A stretch of DNA of 64,000 nucleotides from Candidatus Nanoarchaeia archaeon (GTDB lineage Archaea > Nanobdellota > Nanobdellia > Pacearchaeales > GW2011-AR1): assembly GCA_049288015.1 (NCBI GenBank), contig JBAQGX010000003.1:138034-202033 (forward strand), written 5' to 3'. This document shows positions 12,634 to 23,596 of this stretch, piece after piece (within the stretch, counting starts at the first letter, position 1; each line of letters begins with the position of its first letter). The position numbers and the translations under genes were made by a program. The notes beneath the pieces are model-generated. The model saw only the letters and a program-made list of their open reading frames with translations. It made no database searches and was not told the DNA's origin.

Positions 12634-12852
12634 ATGAAAATGAATGTGATTGATTGGATAGCCTTTATATTGGTAGTTATTGGAGGCCTCAACTGGGGTC
12701 TGCTTGGACTTGCAGGTATAGATATAGTTCAGACTATTTTTGGTAATACTTTAGCTTCATATATAGTTTATCTCATAATAGGACTTGCAGCTATATGGAT
12801 GATTATAAGCGCTATCAGAATGGGAATGGGCATGAAAGGCAAGAAAAAATAG
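12634..12852 (+). CDS. DUF378-family small membrane protein
   Basis: VIGGLNWGLLGLAG...IFG pattern. Strong SD (AAGGAGGTGA) 8 nt upstream. Confidence 0.55.
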   Translation: MKMNVIDWIAFILVVIGGLNWGLLGLAGIDIVQTIFGNTLASYIVYLIIGLAAIWMIISAIRMGMGMKGKKK

Positions 12853-13383: not shown

Positions 13384-13495
13384 AAAGAAATTTTTAGTCC
13401 AATCATTGGAAGCGGAAAGAAATATAATTTTTTCTTAGATTTATCAAAATAAAATCCAACCTAAAAATCGTACCATGCGAAAATAAATTCTATTT

Positions 13496-14068
13496 TCATA
13501 TGTCTTCTTCTTTCCAAGTTAGTTTTTCTTTTGTTGGACCAAGAACCATTTCCCCTTTTGGATTTGAGAGATAAAATAATTTGTAATTATCAAAAGATTT
13601 TCTGATTGGAGAATTTCTTCTTAGATGCCAGGCTCCAAGAATGACAACTAAAGGTCTTCTTGATATTTCAAGAAATTTTCCAACCATCTTTACATGTTTG
13701 TTCTCTCTCCTGTAAGCTAAATCTTCTAACTCTTTCTCTTCCTCTTTCGTAACCTTCATATTTCGATTTATTTTTGTTTGAAGTTTTCTATTTATTAGAA
13801 AGTTCTCAAAATCTATTCCTATTAATTTTATATTTTTCTTATGACATAATTTAATTAATTCTTTTACCTCATCCATTGAAGTCATATTAGAAATCTTATT
13901 TTTTTTCATGATTTTATTGAATTCAAAATCAGATTCTACTTTGTTGTTTTCCATATTTTCAGACAGCACAAAAATTGGCTTGTACTTGTCTATGATTTCT
14001 TTTTGCTTTTCAAATGTATCAATCATTCCGTGCGTGTCAGCAATCAAAATCAAAAGTGGTTCTTCCAT
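13496..14068 (-). CDS. Hypothetical protein, possibly TraB/Tiki-like (GxxH motifs)
   Basis: ILIADTHG near the N-terminus and VVILGAWHL near the C-terminus resemble the paired GTIH / GAAHL motifs of the TraB/PrgY/Tiki family. Shorter than typical members. Immediately downstream of the E1-like gene. Confidence 0.35.
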   Translation of the reverse strand: MEEPLLILIADTHGMIDTFEKQKEIIDKYKPIFVLSENMENNKVESDFEFNKIMKKNKISNMTSMDEVKELIKLCHKKNIKLIGIDFENFLINRKLQTKINRNMKVTKEEEKELEDLAYRRENKHVKMVGKFLEISRRPLVVILGAWHLRRNSPIRKSFDNYKLFYLSNPKGEMVLGPTKEKLTWKEEDI

Positions 14069-14092
14069 GAGTTATTAAAAGAAGGAGCAGTT

Positions 14093-15130
14093 TTAATTCT
14101 TTCCAAATGTTCTCCAACTAATTCCTAAATTCATGAAGTCTATTTCTGCAAATCTGTCAATATTCAAATTTCCCTTTCCAATTAAATACTTGAAAATTTC
14201 CATAACTTGGATATTTGCAACGGCCCCTGCAACCGGTCCAAGATTTCCTGTTTGAGAAATATCTTTTATTACTTCCAATTTGCCCAAAGGGTCACTAGAT
14301 TTTTGATATTCAAGAAAATCATCAAATTTTGCGCTTTTGCCAGGGACTATTATTGGACCAACCATTCCTAAATGCATATTATATCCTCCGGCTACACAAT
14401 AAGGGATATTGTATTTTGTTGCATACTTGTCTATTATCCTAGTCGTTTCGGCTATGGAAGGAGAGTCAGCACAGTTTACTAGGAAATCAGAACCTAAAAT
14501 CATCTCTTCCAAACTTTCATTTTCAGAGACAACTTTTCTAAAGGGAATAATGTTTGCGTCTTTTAATTTTCTTTTTATCACATTAACTTTATATTTTCCA
14601 ATATCTTTAGAATCAAAAAATAATTGCCTGTTCAGATTGCTTTCTTCTACCTTATCTGGATCAGTTACTCTTATTTCTCCAACACCTATTTGATACAGTC
14701 CATTTATTATCCATGTCCCAATACCTCCGACACCAAAAACGGAAACTTTTGAATTTTGTATCTTTTCTTGAATTATAATAGTTTCATCAGATGAGTCTGT
14801 CAGTTCATCTATAAAAGAAATCTGTTTTGAATATCTGTCGTTATCTTGAGGAGAATACTCTCTGACAATTCCTTCTTTCTCAAGTGCACTTAGGCACTTT
14901 GTAATTGCCTTTTCATCATAATTAGGCTTAAGAGTATTCAACAATCTTTCGGAAGTTTGTTCGGTCTTAAGCTCTTCGATTACTCTTTTAACCAAAGGAT
15001 CTACCTTAAACTTTTTAATTTTTCTTGTACCTGTAAAAATGACCTGATAGATATCTTCCGAATCTTTCAGAATATAAATTGAATCTTTAAGCTTTAATTT
15101 TTTTACCATTATCTTTATTAAGAAAAACAC
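14093..15130 (-). CDS. E1-like ThiF/MoeB-family adenylyltransferase with a ~110-aa N-terminal extension
   Basis: Rossmann motif VSVFGVGGIGTWI...VTDPDKVEESNLNRQ, then CADSP...CVAGG. No CxxC zinc motifs. The listed start is GTG at 15130, and an in-frame ATG (MVKKLKLK) lies at 15109. Confidence 0.7.
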   Translation of the reverse strand: MFFLIKIMVKKLKLKDSIYILKDSEDIYQVIFTGTRKIKKFKVDPLVKRVIEELKTEQTSERLLNTLKPNYDEKAITKCLSALEKEGIVREYSPQDNDRYSKQISFIDELTDSSDETIIIQEKIQNSKVSVFGVGGIGTWIINGLYQIGVGEIRVTDPDKVEESNLNRQLFFDSKDIGKYKVNVIKRKLKDANIIPFRKVVSENESLEEMILGSDFLVNCADSPSIAETTRIIDKYATKYNIPYCVAGGYNMHLGMVGPIIVPGKSAKFDDFLEYQKSSDPLGKLEVIKDISQTGNLGPVAGAVANIQVMEIFKYLIGKGNLNIDRFAEIDFMNLGISWRTFGKN

Positions 15131-15151
15131 TTCTCCGCAAGAATAAACTTC

Positions 15152-15310
15152 TTACATCCAATATTTTACGCTTGTTCCACCTGAATGGATATGTTCTTCA
15201 ATCAACTCGAGACCCTCATAGCCAGTCTCAGTTTTTCCTGTTTCATTTCTAACCTTGACTCTGTAAGAATCTATCAGAGTTTCTCTCAAATCTTCTTCAA
15301 GATCTACCAT
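15152..15310 (-). CDS. Small acidic peptide (51 aa) with an internal Gly-Gly, directly upstream of the E1-like gene
   Basis: Hand-translated ORF not in the supplied track: MVDLEEDLRETLIDSYRVKVRNETGKTETGYEGLELIEEHIHSGGTSVKYWM. Same strand, ~40 nt before the E1-like start. Confidence 0.35.
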   Translation of the reverse strand: MVDLEEDLRETLIDSYRVKVRNETGKTETGYEGLELIEEHIHSGGTSVKYWM

Positions 15311-15359
15311 GTAAAAACAGATTGGAGTACATCTTTTAAATTTTTCTATACTTTGTTTT

Positions 15360-17171
15360 TTATCTCTTTATCCCCAAAGTTCTTAATGAATTAAAGATAA
15401 CAGAAACATCAATCACTTCTTGTATGACTGCTCCTGCAATTGGAACAATAAATCCTGCTGCCGCAAGAAGCATTCCTACGATGCTTAATCCTATTCCTGT
15501 AAACATGCTTTCTTTTGCAATTTTCATTGTTTTCCTAGAAATGTTAATAGAATCATAGACTTCAGAAAATCCTCCACCTAGAAAAACAATATCTGCTGCC
15601 TCTGATGAAGCTGTATGTTCTTCATGGCTGAAAACCATTCCTATGTCTGCAAGAGCCAAGGCAGGCGCATCATTTATTCCATCACCGATCATTGCCACTA
15701 CCTTTCCTTTTTTCTTAAGGAATTTTATTCCCTTCTGCTTTTCTTCAGGAGACATTTCATACTGGACATCAACATTCATGTCAATTTCAGACTTCAATTT
15801 TTCAGCTGCAGCTTTTTTATCTCCAGTGAAGACATGGATATCCATTCTGTATCCCTCAAGTTTTTTTATTATAGGTCTTGCATCTGATTTTATTACATCA
15901 TCAAAAATAAACTCCGCAATCAATTTTCTTCCTTCAACAAGATGCACATCATCAGAAGAAGATTCTTCTCCTTTCAGAAGCATGAATTTCTTGCCTCCAA
16001 CTTTCCCAGAAATTTGGGAGCCTGGCTTTTCTTCAACTTCAGAAGCAACAAGTCCCTGGACCTTTTCTCTTCTTGCCTCTTTTATTATGGCTTGGGCAAC
16101 AGGATGAAGGGAATTTCTTTCGATTGCCTCTGCAATGCTCAAGATTTTGGATTTATTGTATTTTTTATCGACTATATTTATTTTTTTCAGAACTGGTTTC
16201 CCTAGAGTTATTGTTCCGGTCTTGTCAAAGACCAAAGTGTCTGCTCTTGAAAGGTCTTCAATGCTTCCAAGATCCTTTACAATTATCTTTTTTCTTGCAT
16301 TTGCGCTCATTCCTCCAATCAAAGCAACCGGTGTCGCCAAAAGGAGGGGGCATGGCGTTGCAATGACTAAAACTGCCAGCACATAATTGAAATTATGCCA
16401 ATACAGATAAGCTCCTCCCGAAATTACCAAAGCAATTACAGTAAAAATCCAGTTGTACTTATGAGCCATTCTTATCATTGGAGATTTTTCTTCCTGTGCC
16501 TTTCTTACCATGTTTATGATTTGCCTGTAAGTAGAGTCTTTGTCTTCTTTTGTGACTTTTATGATAATTGAAGCTCCCATGTTTATTGTTCCGCTTCTTA
16601 TTTTATCTCCTTTTAATTTGTCAACAAAATATGGCTCTCCAGTTAAAGAGGATTCATCGATCTGAGAATACTCTGAAGCAAGGATCCCATCCAAAGGAAT
16701 GACTTCTCCTTTTCTTACGAATATTTTCTGTCCGATTTTTACGCTTTCAATCTTTACTAGCTTGTTTTGAGTTTCATTTTGATATAATAAAACGTCGTGG
16801 GGTATTCTGTTTGTCAAGGAAGTAAGTGAGCTTTTTGCACGTGCCTGTGCGTATTTTTCAAGAGCATTTCCTCCAGTTATCATAAGAACGATTACGCTTC
16901 CTATGAGAAGTTGCTGCGAGGCAAGTGAAACCGCTATCGTAAGGATTGCAAGATAGTCTATTGAAAAATCCTTTCTGGAAAAAGAGACAATTCCTTCAAC
17001 AAGAACTTGTATGCTTCCAGGAATTATTCCAATGATGAATAAAATATTTGATATTAAATTGGATTGGTAGCCGTATTTGAATATTAATCCCAGTGCAAGT
17101 GTAAGGAAAACAAAAGCAGGAATGAGAAACATGCCATATTTTCCATAAAACTTTCCCGACCTCTTCATCAA
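15360..17171 (-). CDS. P1B-type heavy-metal-translocating P-type ATPase (no N-terminal HMA domain)
   Basis: DKTGTIT phosphorylation motif, GDGINDAPAL hinge, CPC in the TM6 segment (ATPCPLLLATP). 603 aa. Confidence 0.85.
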   Translation of the reverse strand: MMKRSGKFYGKYGMFLIPAFVFLTLALGLIFKYGYQSNLISNILFIIGIIPGSIQVLVEGIVSFSRKDFSIDYLAILTIAVSLASQQLLIGSVIVLMITGGNALEKYAQARAKSSLTSLTNRIPHDVLLYQNETQNKLVKIESVKIGQKIFVRKGEVIPLDGILASEYSQIDESSLTGEPYFVDKLKGDKIRSGTINMGASIIIKVTKEDKDSTYRQIINMVRKAQEEKSPMIRMAHKYNWIFTVIALVISGGAYLYWHNFNYVLAVLVIATPCPLLLATPVALIGGMSANARKKIIVKDLGSIEDLSRADTLVFDKTGTITLGKPVLKKINIVDKKYNKSKILSIAEAIERNSLHPVAQAIIKEARREKVQGLVASEVEEKPGSQISGKVGGKKFMLLKGEESSSDDVHLVEGRKLIAEFIFDDVIKSDARPIIKKLEGYRMDIHVFTGDKKAAAEKLKSEIDMNVDVQYEMSPEEKQKGIKFLKKKGKVVAMIGDGINDAPALALADIGMVFSHEEHTASSEAADIVFLGGGFSEVYDSINISRKTMKIAKESMFTGIGLSIVGMLLAAAGFIVPIAGAVIQEVIDVSVIFNSLRTLGIKR

Positions 17172-17994: not shown

Positions 17995-18351
17995 ATGGAT
18001 GAAGAGATAAAAATTGAAGAATTAAAGGAGAGAATAAGAAAATTTTGTGAAGCTAGGGATTGGGACAAATTTCATAATATTAAAGACTTAGCAGTTGCAC
18101 TTTCTATAGAGTCATCAGAGCTTTTAGAATTATTTAGATGGAAAAATCCAAAAGAAGTTGAAGAAACTTTAATGAACAGAAGAGAAGACATTGAAGATGA
18201 AATAGCCGATATTTTTTACTTTTTATTAAGAATTGCTCAAATGAATAACATTAACTTGTCTAATGCCTTGAATAGAAAGATAGAAAAAAATGAAAAAAAA
18301 TATTCAATAGATAGATTTAGAGGCTCAAATAAAAAGTACAATGAGTATTAA
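17995..18351 (+). CDS. MazG-like nucleotide pyrophosphohydrolase
   Basis: All-alpha ~118 aa. ELKERIRKFCEARDWDKFH...ALSIESSELLELFRW and a later EDEIADIFYFLLRIA are typical of the MazG/YpjD family. Confidence 0.7.
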   Translation: MDEEIKIEELKERIRKFCEARDWDKFHNIKDLAVALSIESSELLELFRWKNPKEVEETLMNRREDIEDEIADIFYFLLRIAQMNNINLSNALNRKIEKNEKKYSIDRFRGSNKKYNEY

Positions 18352-19110: not shown

Positions 19111-20103
19111 AATTTTTTCTTAGAAAAATAACAATAAACAAGTACTCAACTCACCAGCTAGATTCTGAACATAATATAAATGAGGCTTTTAGTGGCTGCG
19201 TGCTGAAACCCTCGTGTTCTTGGGTCTTACACAGCAGCTCTATCAACGTCATCTTCTTTGACGGCCTTTGTTGAATCGTTTTGCGGGCTGCTTCGAGCTT
19301 AGATGCATTCAGCTCTTATCAGTCAGCGCGTAGCTTCGCGGCCTGCCAATTGACAACCGCACACCAGAGGCGCCCAATCCCCGTTCCTCTCGTACTAGAA
19401 GATTGTTCCACTCATTCAACGACACACCTAGTAGATATCATACAAACTGTCTCGCGACGTTCTTAACCCAGCTAACGATACCTTTTAATGCGTGAACTCC
19501 GACACCCTTAGCTGCTACTGCACAGCTAGGATAGGTAGAGCCGACAGCGATGTACCAAACCGCCCCGTCAATACGGACTATCGGGGGCGACAAGCCTGTT
19601 ATCCTTGGGGTACCTTTTCTATCAGACACGGCTTCCATTAAAAAAGCACGTGGGTTCACTAAGCCCGACTTTCATCCCTGCATTCCTTGCTTTTCAGAAT
19701 ACAGTCAGACAAGCTTTTGCCTTCGCACTCTGCTCCGGATTTCCAAGCCGGATGAGCTTGTCTTTGGGTCCTATCGATATCTTTTCGACAGGGCACCGCC
19801 CCAGTCAAACTGCCCGCCTGCTGCTGTCCCCATAAAGAGTAAGCAACCTTAGAAAAAATGAGTAGTATTACAAGTTCGCTCCGCCATCACCGAAATGACA
19901 GCTTCGACGCTCCTACCTATTCTATGCATCCTTTCTAAGATCACAACAACAAGTTGCAGTAAAGGTCCACAAGGTCTTCGCTTCCCACTAGGCGTCCGTG
20001 GCATTTTCGCCACACAGTATTTTCAGAAGGCTCAAATCAGGGACAGTGACGACCTCGTTAAACCATTCATGCAAGTCGTAATTCGTACGACAAGGTATTA
20101 CGC

Positions 20104-20780
20104 TCAATTATGTTACATCTCTTTCGAGAAGGTTAACCATTTCTGATTAACTCTGAATGTCGCCATTCAGTTCGGACTATATCTTAACCGTTTCCGGTTT
20201 CTGACGTATAGTCTCTGAGGATTTTAGATAATTCAATATTGGTTTGCGATTCATCTCTGATATTAGTTTAGCAATTTTGTCAAGTCCGTTTTTAGTGAGA
20301 TGTTCTTTTTTATTCATTAAATCAATAACTTCAGAAAAAAGTTCAAAGTCTTTTCTCTTTGAAGTATTCAATTTATTTTTATTGAAAAATTCAACTATTT
20401 TGTTGAGATTCTCCAAACCTCTCACCCTGAATTCTTTTCTTGTTCCATGAAAATCTGTTCTGTTAACTTTAACATCTCCAAAACCAAAATAATCCTTTAT
20501 TTTGTAAAGAACTTTTTCGTCTTTCTCATGTTGAACAATTCTAAATTCAAGTAAGACTTGCCATCCCAAACTCATTTCAGGAATTCTATTGATAGAGATA
20601 TGAAAACATCCTTCTCCATCTGTGAATCCTACAATCCATGAACCATCTAATCTTTCCTGCTGATTGTCTGCAGTCATAACATTTTCACAAAGACGAAATT
20701 TATTAAACTTGTCCTTGTAGTCTGACATTCTCAGAGTTTCCAGCATTTAGTCAGATTTTGATAAGGCAATCGTAATCTTT
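20104..20780 (-). mobile_element. ~677-nt intron in 23S rRNA domain IV (after ...CUUAAGGUA), archaeal bulge-helix-bulge (BHB) type, carrying a homing-endonuclease ORF
   Basis: The exon sequence is interrupted between CUUAAGGUA and GCGUAAUACCUUGUCG (E. coli ~1930 region). Only ~107 nt remain outside the ORF, too little for a group I ribozyme core. Boundaries are +/- a few nt. Confidence 0.7.
20177..20746 (-). CDS. LAGLIDADG homing endonuclease (intron-encoded)
   Basis: WIVGFTDGEGCF motif, 189 aa, lies entirely inside the 23S insertion. Confidence 0.85.
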   Translation of the reverse strand: MLETLRMSDYKDKFNKFRLCENVMTADNQQERLDGSWIVGFTDGEGCFHISINRIPEMSLGWQVLLEFRIVQHEKDEKVLYKIKDYFGFGDVKVNRTDFHGTRKEFRVRGLENLNKIVEFFNKNKLNTSKRKDFELFSEVIDLMNKKEHLTKNGLDKIAKLISEMNRKPILNYLKSSETIRQKPETVKI

Positions 20781-20814
<34 letters not shown>

Positions 20815-22813
20815 GATGGGTCTTAGCTCCCTTGAAAAAGAGTTTGAAACACCACCACTGGGCAGGTCTCACCGAGTATATACAGCTTTTCAGCTTAGCA
20901 CTCGGCTACGTTTTTGGTAAACAGTCGGGCCATCCTTGTAACTGTGATCTATCAATGCTCCTTGCGGACAAAGATAGACACCCCTTAAACCGAAGTTATG
21001 GGGCTAATATGCCGAATTCCCTTGATTTGTTTGACCTTTCATGTCTTAGCCTATTAAGCCAGAGCACCAGTGCCGGTTGTGGGTACAGTTAACTAAATTC
21101 GTTTAGCAATATATTTTTCACTGGCTCCCGGAGTCAGCGATTTTGTCCTGCAAATTTATACAGATCTTAGCATTACGCTCCCAATATTTCTTTGCAGAAG
21201 CATTCTCTCAAATGCTCGCTTATCCCGAAACGGTATATTACAAAAAATTTAGCTAGTAAATGAATATTAACATTTTTTCCATCGCTGTATTCAGTTAAGG
21301 TACAACTTAGGAACTGACTAACCCTTGGCTAACATATATTGCCAAGGAAACCTTGCTCTTACGACACTTTGCGTTTTCAGCAAAGTCACTTCTTACTATT
21401 GCCAAGATTCTCATTGCTTATCGCTCCACTCTTTGTCTCCAAAAAGCTTCTGCGCAATAAACACGCCTGCTTACTCGAACGCTCAAATGAGCGCCGCCGA
21501 AGTCTCGGTATTATGCTTAGCCCCGTCCATTTTCAGGGCCCTGAGCCTCGATGGGTGAGCTGTAACGCTTTCTTTAAATGATAGCTGCTTCTGAGCTTAC
21601 ATCCCCACTGTCTCAGGTTCAAGACACCTTTTGATACACTTAGCATAAATTTAGGGACCTTAACTTTGGTCTGGGTTATTCCCCTTTCGGAACGATACCT
21701 TACGCACCGCCCCTGTTTCATATTTTACGCAGCCAACAGCTTCCGAGTTGGAAAAAGTTCCGTAAGCATAAGCTCCTGCGAACTTTATCCGTACTATACA
21801 CCGCTGGCAAACTAAATACGACTATACGAAGGCATATTTCAGCAGGAACCAGCCATCGCCGAGTTAGATAGGCTTTTCACTCCTATTCTCAAGTCATCCA
21901 AGTATATGTACGTAACACCGGTTCAGTCCTCCATCCCCCTTTCGAGAGACTTCAACTTACTCAAGAATAGATCACCCGGCTTCAGGTCTGTCCCATATGA
22001 CTGACGCTGTTTCCAACTTGCTTTCGCTTCGGTTACTCTTCATAAAAGATTAGCCTCGCCATATAAGAAAACTCCTTGGCCCGTTCTTCGAAACGTACGA
22101 TACAACCCTTTTCCTTGCGGAAAGAGCAGTATCAATCTGTAGCTGTTAGATTTCAAATCTTTTCACACTCTGCTAAGAGTTCTTTTCAGCTTTCCCTCGC
22201 GGTACTAGTGCGCTATCGGACTTTGGTTCTATTTAGGGTTAGCGGTTAATTCCGCCATGTTCAGACCTCCAATCCAGGAGGCCCTACTCTTTGAGCAACT
22301 CCATATATCATTCGTCTACCGGGCTATCACCGTCTAAGGCCCCTCTTTCCAGAGGAGTTTGACTCCTATACTTAGGAATTTACGCTCACCACATCTCTGT
22401 TCTCTTTTCAAAGACAGATTCAGTTTGCCCTCTATCCTTTTCGCTCTCTGCTAATAAGGATATCATTATTTATTTTCTCTTCCTGCAGGTACTAAGATGT
22501 TTCAATTCCCTGCGTGGTTCCCCCTCTCGGGGTGATTCGGAGATCCAAGGTTCAAAGCTTGCATGCAGCTCGCCTCGGCTTATCGCAGCTTGCCACGTCC
22601 TTCATCAATTCCAAAGCCAAGCTATCCGTCTAACAGCATAAAAAATTACATTATGTCGTATGTTTTTACACATCTGCACAAATAAATTGTGCTCTAGCTA
22701 GTGAGTTGAGTACTTGTCTCATTGAATATAACTCCTCCTTCCGGAGAAGTGTTCTCAACATGATACATCGACGTAATCGATGCACCACCTCAACGTGTGA
22801 GTATGATCTGTAA

Positions 22814-22996
22814 TTAATAATTTATGTAATTTATTCCATGAACGATATCTTGCATATATCTTCTCATTTCGTCTACTTTCATTGCTCCCGAAAATCTACC
22901 AACGATTACTTGTGATTCTAATCCTTTTAGAGCAGCAGCTTGTTCAACATTCTCTCTTGGAGTTTCTTTTACTGCATATTCACTTTCCATTTCCAT
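22814..22996 (-). CDS. Small ORF (60 aa) in the 16S-23S spacer, second gene of the spacer module
   Basis: ATG at 22996 is preceded by GGAGGA 3 nt upstream. It overlaps the stop of the upstream spacer ORF by 17 nt. The listed alternative start is TTG at 23020. Confidence 0.4.
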   Translation of the reverse strand: MEMESEYAVKETPRENVEQAAALKGLESQVIVGRFSGAMKVDEMRRYMQDIVHGINYINY

Positions 22997-23501
22997 TTCC
23001 TCCGTTTTGTTTTTTGACAATATACTCTTGGATTATTGGATGCATTTCGTTAAATAGAATTGAGTTGTAATATCCCCATCTTCCTGTATCGTCGCTGATT
23101 GTCTTATAATATTCTTGAGCTATAGCTCTAACACCCTCTGGATGTATTCCTCTTGATATTGCTCCTCTGATCTCATTTGCAATTCTTGCTTCCACGTCGT
23201 CGATTCTAAGTTTAGTGTGAAGATTAATTGCGTGTCCTCCAGAAGGTCGGTTTCCTTCCTTGCTTCCCCAAGTCTGTCCGTACTTTTCAACATACATCAT
23301 TACTAGGTCGAACATCTTTCTGTCAGCGCATCCTAACTTTTTGTTCTCCTTATATTGGGTAATGTACTGATCGAACATAGGTTTTATGTTTATCTCTTCG
23401 AATGATTTGCCCTCTTCAATTGTGTCTACTAGTTCCGTAGCTAGCGCTAGTTCTAGTTCTCCTGCTTCTTGTCTTGTTAATGTGTCAATTTCGCTTTCCA
23501 T
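22980..23501 (-). CDS. Hypothetical acidic protein (173 aa) encoded inside the 16S-23S spacer
   Basis: Clean 173-codon ORF starting 25 nt downstream of the tRNA-Ala 3' end and ending before the 23S processing stem. No recognisable family. Confidence 0.5.
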   Translation of the reverse strand: MESEIDTLTRQEAGELELALATELVDTIEEGKSFEEINIKPMFDQYITQYKENKKLGCADRKMFDLVMMYVEKYGQTWGSKEGNRPSGGHAINLHTKLRIDDVEARIANEIRGAISRGIHPEGVRAIAQEYYKTISDDTGRWGYYNSILFNEMHPIIQEYIVKKQNGGNGNGK

Positions 23502-23525: not shown

Positions 23526-23596
23526 TGGACCTGCCGGGAATTGAACCCGGAACTCCTCGGTGCAAACGAGGTATTCTGCCGTTGGACTACAGGCCC
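23526..23596 (-). tRNA. tRNA-Ala (anticodon UGC), the spacer tRNA of the rRNA operon
   Basis: Manual fold of the reverse complement. Acceptor GGGCCUG/CAGGUCC, anticodon loop UUUGCAC, T-arm CCGGG-UUCAAUU-CCCGG, discriminator A. Confidence 0.85.

Follow-up and report, generated by a model that had tools for sequence, protein, structure and literature searches.

Does an E1-like adenylyltransferase encoded beside a small peptide with a Gly-Gly pair near its end belong to a ubiquitin-like (Ubl) system, in which the peptide is trimmed and conjugated, or does it modify the peptide's own C-terminus, as happens in the making of peptides that are ribosomally synthesized and then modified post-translationally (RiPPs)? 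The question is raised by a three-gene cassette in a 64,000-nucleotide stretch of DNA from a Candidatus Nanoarchaeia archaeon (assembly GCA_049288015.1, contig JBAQGX010000003.1, positions 138,034 to 202,033 of the forward strand; hereafter the window), for which both answers had been put forward when the genes were first noticed (the original prediction). The window is AT-rich and archaeal, and contains an archaeal 16S-tRNA(Ala)-23S operon and an archaeal RNase P RNA. Sequence and open reading frame (ORF) calls bear out that three co-directional minus-strand genes lie downstream of a heavy-metal P-type ATPase gene (15360-17171, minus strand; TIGR01525, E 3e-139): a precursor peptide gene (15152..15310), a gene for a ThiF-like adenylyltransferase with the architecture of MccB and PaaA (14093..15109) and a gene for a 190-aa protein of the Tiki/TraB/ChaN superfamily (13496..14068). 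We conclude, with a probability of about 60%, that the cassette is a three-gene, RiPP-type peptide-maturation pathway of the ThiF-like adenylyltransferase (TLAT) kind in a DPANN archaeon. Of the two answers, C-terminal modification of the peptide by an MccB/PaaA-type enzyme is the one that gains support, both from sequence and from full-length fold matches.

The ORF of the enzyme reaches mechanically from a GTG at 15130 to 14093, and an ATG at 15109 gives a protein beginning M-V-K-K-L-K-L-K-D-S; this ATG is almost certainly the real start, yielding 338 aa, because the identical protein called by NCBI (P0001) and all homologues begin there. Pfam places PF00899 (ThiF) over residues ~93-332 (E 4e-41), and a Pfam scan found no additional domain, such as rhodanese, in the enzyme. 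A sequence search of the PDB ranked MccB best (4e-24) and PaaA second (5e-19), with ubiquitin E1s, ThiF and MoeB lower, and the phmmer alignment to MccB, which begins at residue 69 of the 345-aa ORF, pairs GVGGIG with GCGGIG, NLNRQ with NLTRQ, GKYK with GKNK and CADSP with SADHP (enzyme and MccB, respectively). The residues of the ATP/Mg site are kept, namely the Arg of N-L-N-R-Q, the Lys of G-K-Y-K and the Asp of N-C-A-D-S-P, and columns G126, G128, G129, G131, R161, K174 and D215 are invariant in 34 homologues. The CxxC zinc ligands of MccB align to S-A-K-F-D-D in the enzyme; the intact GxGxxG ATP site and the lack of CxxC zinc motifs that had been described from the sequence alone are thus both seen again in the MccB alignment. 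Cysteines occur only at positions 72, 213 and 238, with none in the flexible crossover-loop region (240-300), where Cys184 of ThiF and Cys188 of UbaA sit.

An AlphaFold2 (AF2) model of the enzyme made with 34 homologues (predicted local distance difference test, pLDDT, 89) shows, ahead of the Rossmann domain, an N-terminal module made up of four β-strands, then three helices, then one more strand. Foldseek superposed this model over its full length, 347-351 columns, on MccB (3h5n; template-modelling score, TM, 0.76 over 347 columns) and on PaaA (TM 0.73), whereas with ThiF and MoeB the match is confined to ~260 columns at the C-terminal side. Full-length superposition on both proteins upholds the predicted likeness of the N-terminal extension to their peptide-clamp or RiPP recognition element (RRE)-like domains. 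The extension had been put at ~110 aa and is shorter, with the ThiF domain starting from about residue 93-100, which leaves ~95 aa. AF2 secondary structure and the MccB/PaaA superposition place this N-terminal domain (about residues 1-95) at 14825..15109 on the minus strand, and alignment to the MccB ATP/Mg site places the adenylation (Rossmann/ThiF) domain at 14096..14824 on the same strand. Homology suggests that the N-terminal domain is peptide-clamp/RRE-like and would bind a leader peptide. Together, the alignments and the model assign the enzyme to the peptide-modifying MccB/PaaA branch, now named ThiF-like adenylyltransferases (PMC12250964, PMC12596934). The NCBIfam models for ThiF, MoeB, UbaA and TcdA all scored far under their cut-offs (98 versus 275 bits for ThiF, 74 versus 450 for UbaA), and we rejected equivalence to ThiF, MoeB or UbaA on these scores and on the partial fold match to such proteins compared with MccB and PaaA. 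Judged by sequence, the enzyme is not orthologous to any curated sulfur-carrier or Ubl E1.

The peptide gene runs from 15310 to 15152, as originally given; its product has 52 residues when the Met is counted and not 51 (MVDLEEDLRETLIDSYRVKVRNETGKTETGYEGLELIEEHIHSGGTSVKYWM), and it ends in ...EEHIHSGGTSVKYWM (also written ...YEGLELIEEHIHSGGTSVKYWM) before the stop codon. Its parts are an N-terminal M-x-x-L-E, a variable middle, Y-E-G-L at positions -21 to -18 (the terminal Met being 0) and the tail T-S-V-K-Y-W-M. We assembled two sets of related loci: an enzyme-anchored set, in which enzyme homologues were traced to their contigs and 27 loci were taken from DPANN metagenome-assembled genomes (MAGs) in GTDB, and a peptide-anchored set, for which a metagenome collection was scanned with the back-translated tail T-[ST]-I-K-Y-W-M-stop. 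This DNA-pattern scan returned 91 loci, 77 with peptide-like ORFs bearing the upstream Y-x-G-L features and 14 that were chance matches or unclear. A position profile was then drawn from 26 distinct enzyme-anchored peptides, which are unbiased for the tail, and 70 distinct pattern-anchored ones. Family members are 46-60 aa long and carry the tail T-S-(I/V)-x-Y-W-M-stop at essentially all loci, with the Y-x-G-L motif exactly 21 residues before the C-terminus, a conserved N-terminal M-E-x-L-E and a middle that varies in both length and sequence. In the enzyme-anchored set, Tyr at -21, Gly at -19, Thr at -6 and each residue of the final Tyr-Trp-Met (-2, -1 and 0) were found in 26/26 peptides and Ser at -5 in 24/26; position -4 is Ile or Val, and position -3 is Lys in 19, Arg in 4, Met in 2 and Gln in 1. 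This core is unchanged even where the enzyme is down to 50% identity (L030). Codons of the tail vary synonymously (ACA/ACC/ACT/ACG, AGC/AGT, ATA/ATC/ATT, AAA/AAG, TAT/TAC), and selection therefore acts on the protein. The peptide gene is also called in Logan and NCBI records, and it is a real gene, although it had no family match in Pfam, NCBIfam, PADLOC or PHROG. The strong acidity first ascribed to the peptide holds for this copy (net charge -6) but not for the family (mean -0.9, range -6 to +7).

An invariant extreme C-terminus is the pattern expected if the terminal carboxylate is the site of reaction, and it bears directly on the Gly-Gly pair that prompted the ubiquitin-like answer. The pair is present in the window peptide 7 residues before the C-terminus, as reported. 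Across orthologous loci, however, the small ORF is conserved but its Gly-Gly varies: among the enzyme-anchored peptides Gly stands at position -8 in 19/26 and at position -7 in 18/26, with Pro in 4, Lys in 3 and Tyr in 1, and in the pattern-anchored set, which is unbiased at these positions, -7 is Gly in 38/70 and Pro in 27/70. Common replacements at the site are G-P, S-G, G-K and G-Y. What is invariant instead is Y-W-M. At ~50 aa, with a variable and low-complexity middle, the peptide is too short and too variable to form a β-grasp fold. Neither the cassette nor its conserved neighbourhood in the cassette loci examined holds an E2, JAMM or rhodanese partner. Given the variable Gly-Gly, the short and variable peptide and an enzyme without the E1 cysteine, we no longer regard trimming to Gly-Gly followed by adenylation as the leading explanation; with Gly-Gly not kept in orthologous loci, it fails the very test that the original prediction had set for it.

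The cassette is conserved in DPANN archaea, in MAGs of Woesearchaeota, Pacearchaeota and Nanoarchaeota. We found 714 homologues of the enzyme, with 62-73% identity among the matches listed, and those that are named belong to DPANN. The peptide gene adjoins the enzyme gene in 23 of the 27 genome loci, and also in L004 and L005; the other four comprise three contig edges and one frameshifted remnant (L007). At every enzyme-anchored locus having enough flanking DNA the TraB-like gene is present, and all such loci except L007 have an intact peptide gene as well. Among the peptide-anchored metagenome loci, 41 have enough downstream DNA, and in 39 of these the TraB-like gene is accompanied by a full-length enzyme; of the remaining two, L087 has a truncated enzyme and L115 has none within 8 kb. 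Such recurrence of the trio is far beyond chance. At L007 the peptide gene (597-663) is a frameshifted remnant that ends in K-K-Y-W-M-stop after a run of A, and the TraB-like gene (674-1251) is split by a frameshift; the cassette there is either decaying or affected by sequencing errors in homopolymers. Two loci with a typical DPANN cassette come from MAGs labelled 'uncultured Methanosarcinales archaeon' (L022) and 'uncultured Gammaproteobacteria bacterium' (L027), which most likely are mis-binned DPANN contigs.

When the neighbours at ~100 loci were clustered, the only recurrent ones were RtcB (13 loci) and pilus-like genes (7-8 loci). The RtcB RNA ligase gene, the most frequent neighbour, usually lies on the opposite strand (L005, 4036-5199, and 12 other loci); we read both kinds of gene as local synteny outside the system. 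A viral or mobile origin was rejected: IMG/VR yielded no relatives and no copies on viral contigs, and PHROG matches were only to families of unknown function. Anti-phage systems built around an E1 (CBASS Cap2, Bub/Bil, 6A-MBL) were also set aside, since PADLOC gave only generic matches to the Rossmann segment and none to the peptide or the 190-aa protein.

The 190-aa protein contains the motifs originally noted as ADTHG and GAWHL (A-D-T-H13 and G-A-W-H147), together with Glu36 and Arg120; across the family R120 is invariant and E36 and H147 are conserved at >=90%, while H13 is less so, being Glu or Ser in some members. The window protein itself had no above-threshold match in Pfam or NCBIfam. 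Its AF2 model (pLDDT 95) has as its top Foldseek match in the PDB the Campylobacter protein ChaN (2g5g; probability 0.97, TM only 0.43), and among 42 aligned members sub-threshold matches were to PF01963 TraB_PrgY_gumN in 19 (best 6.9e-5), to PF04187 ChaN in 8 and to DUF5682 in 8. Distant relatives retrieved with the family profile from 1.84 billion proteins (E 1e-5 to 1e-9) score above the Pfam gathering thresholds, P0258, P0286 and P0305 for ChaN and P0294 for TraB, and the link to PF01963 and PF04187 therefore holds by transitivity. Member profiles and transitive relatives, alongside the low-TM fold match, thus support membership of the Tiki/TraB/ChaN superfamily, and at that level the original guess of a TraB/Tiki-like protein has been borne out. 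The family is small, with 54 matches in a database clustered at 90% identity and 193 representatives at E<=1e-3 among the 1.84 billion proteins, and one JGI annotation calls it an 'uncharacterized iron-regulated protein'. Two other assignments were tried and rejected: a metallophosphoesterase, as 'GDTHG' might suggest (weak Metallophos matches in 3 of the 42 members versus 19 for TraB), and MoaC (E 0.02 for the window protein, not reproduced across members).

Solitary homologues of the 190-aa protein, 66-71% identical, occur at L125 (2504-3091) and L126 (499-1101) with no adjacent peptide or enzyme gene. In these copies (P0125, P0127) one GxxH motif or both have another residue in place of His (ADAHG...NAKEL; GDTEG...GAKEL), while cassette-linked copies, including the one in the window, keep GxxH...E...R...GxxH. 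The loss of His from unlinked copies suggests that the metal-site residues matter in the cassette context. The 190-aa protein is the candidate metal-dependent peptidase or hydrolase of the pathway. The neighbourhood of L125 holds MazG-like and P-type ATPase genes, as the window does.

How might these three proteins act together? The closest solved relative of the enzyme, the Escherichia coli microcin C7 synthetase MccB (3h5n, 6om4), likewise joins a peptide clamp to a ThiF domain with the same ATP-site Arg, Lys and Asp, works on a ribosomal peptide encoded alongside it and needs no catalytic Cys. It differs in its zinc-binding cysteines, in the accompanying MccC-F genes, both of which the archaeal system lacks, and in its substrate, since MccA is 7 aa long, ends in Asn and is turned into a phosphoramidate peptidyl-AMP, whereas the archaeal peptide is ~50 aa long and ends in an invariant Met. 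PaaA of pantocin A (5ff5), the second-best match, is similarly an RRE-ThiF fusion acting on a leader-containing precursor, but it cyclises an internal Glu-Glu-Asn; our peptide alignments and profile hold no conserved EEN, and the archaeal peptide conserves its extreme C-terminus instead. Closer in logic are the TLATs IndF, EnfB and GrcB, which adenylate the C-terminal carboxylate of their precursors (PMC12150305, PMC11256085, PMC12596934) and yield, respectively, an indolylamide (tail NWYFI), an imide (tail WWIVI) and a thiolactone (PMC12150305, PMC11256085, PMC12596934). According to the TLAT literature, all characterised members adenylate a peptide carboxylate, on which a nucleophile then acts: MccB uses an Asn side chain, PaaA and EnfB an amide of the backbone or of a side chain, GrcB a Cys and IndF the Trp indole nitrogen. 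As published descriptions have it, the IndF, EnfB and GrcB clusters are also minimal, pairing a precursor with a ThiF-like enzyme and in some cases adding a peptidase; the IndF and EnfB precursor families are marked by a hydrophobic, Trp-containing C-terminal motif, and in all three systems C-terminal adenylation is followed by intramolecular capture. They differ from the archaeal cassette in belonging to Firmicutes and in having ABC or other transporters and an M16 peptidase where the cassette has a Tiki/TraB-like protein and no transporter; the archaeal tail TS(I/V)KYWM, moreover, has its Trp at -1 and not at -3 or -4 as in the IndF and EnfB tails, and its core is near-invariant across the whole class, unlike theirs.

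Because this tail-motif logic of the TLATs fits the archaeal peptide, we propose Met adenylation and intramolecular capture. Homologies, architecture, conservation pattern and gene linkage are the observations from which we infer docking, Met adenylation, the nucleophile, the order of the steps and the part of the hydrolase. The ~50-aa peptide would be the substrate; the segment Y-x-G-L...(V/I)-E-(E/D), at its fixed distance of 21 residues from the C-terminus, would dock on the N-terminal clamp/RRE-like domain, allowing the invariant tail T-S-(I/V)-x-Y-W-M to thread into the ATP site, where the enzyme would adenylate the α-carboxylate of the C-terminal Met. A nucleophile would then capture the acyl-adenylate with no cysteine thioester intermediate, most likely within the same molecule, to give a small C-terminal macrocycle, and the Tiki/TraB-like protein would serve as an accessory hydrolase, most simply as a leader peptidase that frees the modified core. 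As nucleophile we would favour the invariant Thr-6 (or Ser-5), which would close a macrolactone of 6-7 residues resembling that of the pheromone GBAP, then the Trp indole nitrogen, as in IndF, and then an amide of the backbone, which has been proposed for EnfB. The replacement of Lys-3 by Arg, Met or Gln in some peptides excludes that residue. Our confidence in any specific product is much lower than in the general mechanism.

Chemical precedent for a lactone from Thr or Ser to Met in a peptide ending ...YWM is offered by GBAP, whose sequence ends ...QWM. In this pheromone of the Enterococcus faecalis fsr system the lactone joins Ser3 to Met11, so that the C-terminal Met is esterified (PMC7028047). 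The likeness is one of analogy only, with no homology, as the ring of GBAP is closed by FsrB, a membrane protease, and neither ATP nor a ThiF-like enzyme takes part. In the superfamily of the 190-aa protein, short hydrophobic peptide pheromones are the substrates of TraB and PrgY, while TIKI removes residues from the end of a peptide. The TIKI/TraB/PrgY/ChaN/erythromycin-esterase superfamily resembles the 190-aa protein in predicted fold, if at low TM, in weak profile matches and in the paired GxxH with Glu and Arg, of which H13 is not conserved throughout the family, but TraB and ChaN proteins have ~250-400 aa, and the 190-aa family is much smaller and lies under the Pfam thresholds. Graspetide loci provide a precedent, in that leader removal there has been predicted to be the task of Tiki/TraB peptidases (PMC8939145).

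Several observations weigh against this proposal. Conservation of the enzyme (62-73% identity among the matches listed) and a near-invariant core are atypical for RiPP antibiotics, which usually diversify, and no exporter, immunity gene or regulator is conserved beside the cassette in the neighbour clustering of ~100 loci. The peptide and TraB-like gene persist at L115 with the enzyme absent within 8 kb. Concerning the hydrolase, family members differ at the His positions of the GxxH motifs, a TM of 0.43 makes for a weak Tiki/TraB fold match, and ChaN, its closest relative of solved structure, binds haem and is not a protease. An indolylamide formed at Trp-1, finally, would be a strained 9-membered ring.

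Four other accounts of the same genes were considered. One keeps the adenylation as proposed and makes the Tiki/TraB-like protein an esterase or amidase that reopens or inactivates the modified peptide for recycling, immunity or shut-off, or else a non-catalytic partner. Its superfamily does include erythromycin esterases, pheromone-shutdown proteins and the non-enzymatic ChaN, its top fold match; the variable His residues agree with such a role, and the frequent overlap of its gene with the enzyme start suggests co-translation or a complex. We nonetheless consider this unlikely, as the cassette offers no candidate peptidase besides the Tiki/TraB-like protein and a ~40-aa leader presumably has to be removed, and as linked copies keep GxxH...E...R...GxxH where unlinked ones lose His. 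A further step away, and improbable, is tagging in the manner of ubiquitin or Pup: the E1-like enzyme would activate the peptide as a mini-modifier, as encoded or after trimming to Gly-Gly, and ligate it to lysines or another amine such as a lipid head group, with the Tiki/TraB-like protein processing or deconjugating it. The enzyme does belong to the E1 superfamily, conservation is at housekeeping level with no exporter, and the combination of enzyme, hydrolase and small substrate mirrors the minimal archaeal logic of UbaA, JAMM and SAMP. Intermolecular capture is chemically possible too, as EnfB amidates the C-terminus of its peptide with external primary amines in vitro (PMC11256085). Archaeal SAMP/UbaA, like ThiS/ThiF and MoaD/MoeB, share with the cassette an E1-like adenylation domain that activates a C-terminal carboxylate, but those systems require a β-grasp substrate with a terminal Gly-Gly and work through persulfide chemistry or a Cys in the crossover loop, and the cassette has neither. 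Its Gly-Gly is not conserved, and trimming at the common G-P-T would leave a C-terminal Pro; a peptide of ~46-60 aa with a variable middle cannot form the β-grasp fold; no E2, JAMM or rhodanese partner is found in the cassette; and the architecture is that of the MccB/PaaA branch and not of UbaA, MoeB or ThiF.

The closeness of the enzyme to MccB might also point to a Trojan horse like microcin C, a stable peptide-nucleotide processed to an aminoacyl-adenylate mimic. This we hold to be very improbable. Plain acyl-adenylates of Met are hydrolytically labile, the zinc cysteines of MccB are absent, no MccC/D/E/F-like genes are conserved nearby, and the N-P chemistry of MccB needs a C-terminal Asn, through a succinimide (PMC12150305), where the archaeal peptides have Met in 26/26. 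Barely credible, lastly, is a sulfur-carrier enzyme of the ThiF/MoeB type, serving thiamin, molybdopterin or tRNA thiolation beside unrelated neighbours, even though sub-threshold NCBIfam matches to ThiF, MoeB and UbaA and database names of homologues ('SAMP-activating enzyme E1', 'molybdopterin/thiamine biosynthesis adenylyltransferase') would suggest it. The NCBIfam scores fall so far below the cut-offs that the placement in sulfur-carrier biosynthesis, named at the outset as an outcome that would overturn the peptide-based interpretations, is not obtained, and the extra clamp domain with its full-length match specific to MccB and PaaA, the missing crossover-loop Cys and rhodanese domain, and the strict linkage to the peptide and TraB-like genes over ~100 loci all speak against it. 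Correcting such names matters, as they would mislead metabolic reconstructions of these organisms.

C-terminal adenylation of the peptide, in the RiPP manner, is thus the reading we prefer, and the enzymology is most likely that of the TLATs. The cassette looks like an archaeal TLAT-type peptide-tailoring pathway, apparently the first, and not like a ubiquitin-like one. The original statement that genomes of this sort have no description of either kind of system is in line with the literature we searched, in which TLAT pathways have so far been described only in bacteria: TLAT reviews, a survey of lactic acid bacteria, the IndF paper with its RefSeq bacterial screen and a genome-mining study of archaeal RiPPs do not mention archaeal ThiF-like RiPPs, and a search combining DPANN lineages with ThiF returned nothing relevant. 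What is new here is the host domain, the tail motif, the accessory hydrolase, the missing conserved exporter and the extreme conservation; no curated family exists for the peptide or for the 190-aa protein. If confirmed, the pathway would bring Archaea into the young field of TLAT RiPPs and add to it both an unfamiliar tail motif (…TSIKYWM) and a Tiki/TraB-like accessory hydrolase of a new type, and it is small enough to be reconstituted in vitro from three synthetic genes.

The conservation, the lack of an exporter and the absence of viral copies make the system look more like the source of a conserved, lineage-wide product, which could be a signal, a cofactor, or a factor for the surface or for contact with a host, than like that of a diversifying antibiotic; they also leave some room for intermolecular tagging. 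The genomes of DPANN archaea are very small, and these organisms are believed to rely on hosts; that many of these lineages keep the three genes, with enzymes 60-70% identical and an unchanged peptide core, indicates a product important for their biology, in signalling, attachment or as a cofactor. A specific form of this idea, tentative and rather doubtful, is a near-invariant modified peptide, for example a cyclic TS(I/V)KYWM depsipeptide or indolylamide that some lineages may also prenylate, acting in DPANN archaea of the Woesearchaeota and Pacearchaeota type as a signal, an adhesion or host-interaction factor, or a peptide-derived cofactor. If true, it would provide the first archaeal ThiF-like RiPP pathway and a molecular handle on DPANN symbiosis. 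A bolder version would have the activated peptide moved onto other molecules, a Pup-like, β-grasp-free tagging carried out by an E1 homologue.

A fourth gene of ~300 aa lies between the peptide and TraB-like genes at three loci (L010, 2420-3355; L025, 2435-3373; L026, 2438-3388) and occurs also in 9 of the 77 metagenome loci (L043, L065, L071, L078, L088, L107-L109 and L112). Its product has a weak match to PF00348 (2e-4) and weak PDB matches to FPPS and OPPS (E 0.2-0.5) in the region of the aspartate-rich motifs, and the motifs D-x-x-x-D and D-D-L-I-D are conserved. ComQ is a polyprenyl-synthase-like enzyme that prenylates a Trp of the ComX pheromone; by analogy, the fourth gene could encode a ComQ-like peptide prenyltransferase confined to a sub-clade, which we offer as a lead only. 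This polyprenyl-synthase-like gene is absent from the 64-kb window.

The layout of the cassette in the window shows some further features. Spacers are 42 nt between the peptide and enzyme genes and 24 nt between the enzyme gene and that for the 190-aa protein. Elsewhere the common order is peptide, TraB-like protein, enzyme, often with overlapping stop and start codons, and the window order (peptide, enzyme, TraB-like protein) is rearranged with respect to it. The peptide and enzyme ORFs stand in one frame (15107-15154, minus strand), separated by the peptide TAA and 14 sense codons, such that stop-codon read-through would yield a peptide-enzyme fusion; since most loci have another gene order, the shared frame is probably coincidental. 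Within the 49-nt spacer between the P-type ATPase stop and the peptide ATG, a TTTAAAA element (15334..15340, minus strand, 24-30 nt upstream of the ATG) can be read from the sequence and is a possible archaeal TATA box for a leaderless or near-leaderless cassette transcript, although in so AT-rich a genome a chance match is likely. Similarly, a TTTATTTT run (13480..13487, minus strand) found 9-16 nt past the end of the gene for the 190-aa protein might act as an archaeal oligo-T terminator and close the cassette. The flanking genes for a MazG-like nucleotide pyrophosphohydrolase (17995-18351, plus strand) and a DUF378 membrane protein (12634-12852, plus strand) are both ordinary.

The rRNA region of the window holds two further ORFs on the minus strand. 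Inside the 23S rRNA gene (19167-22653), which spans 3487 nt compared with 2987 nt for the model, an ORF of 189 aa (20177-20746) matches LAGLIDADG_1 (E 1e-25); it probably belongs to an intron of the rRNA gene that carries a homing endonuclease. In the ~1-kb 16S-23S spacer, beside the tRNA-Ala gene (23526-23596), lies an ATG-initiated ORF of 173 aa (22980-23501) with no Pfam match, which may be genuine, may be spurious or may represent a second mobile insertion.

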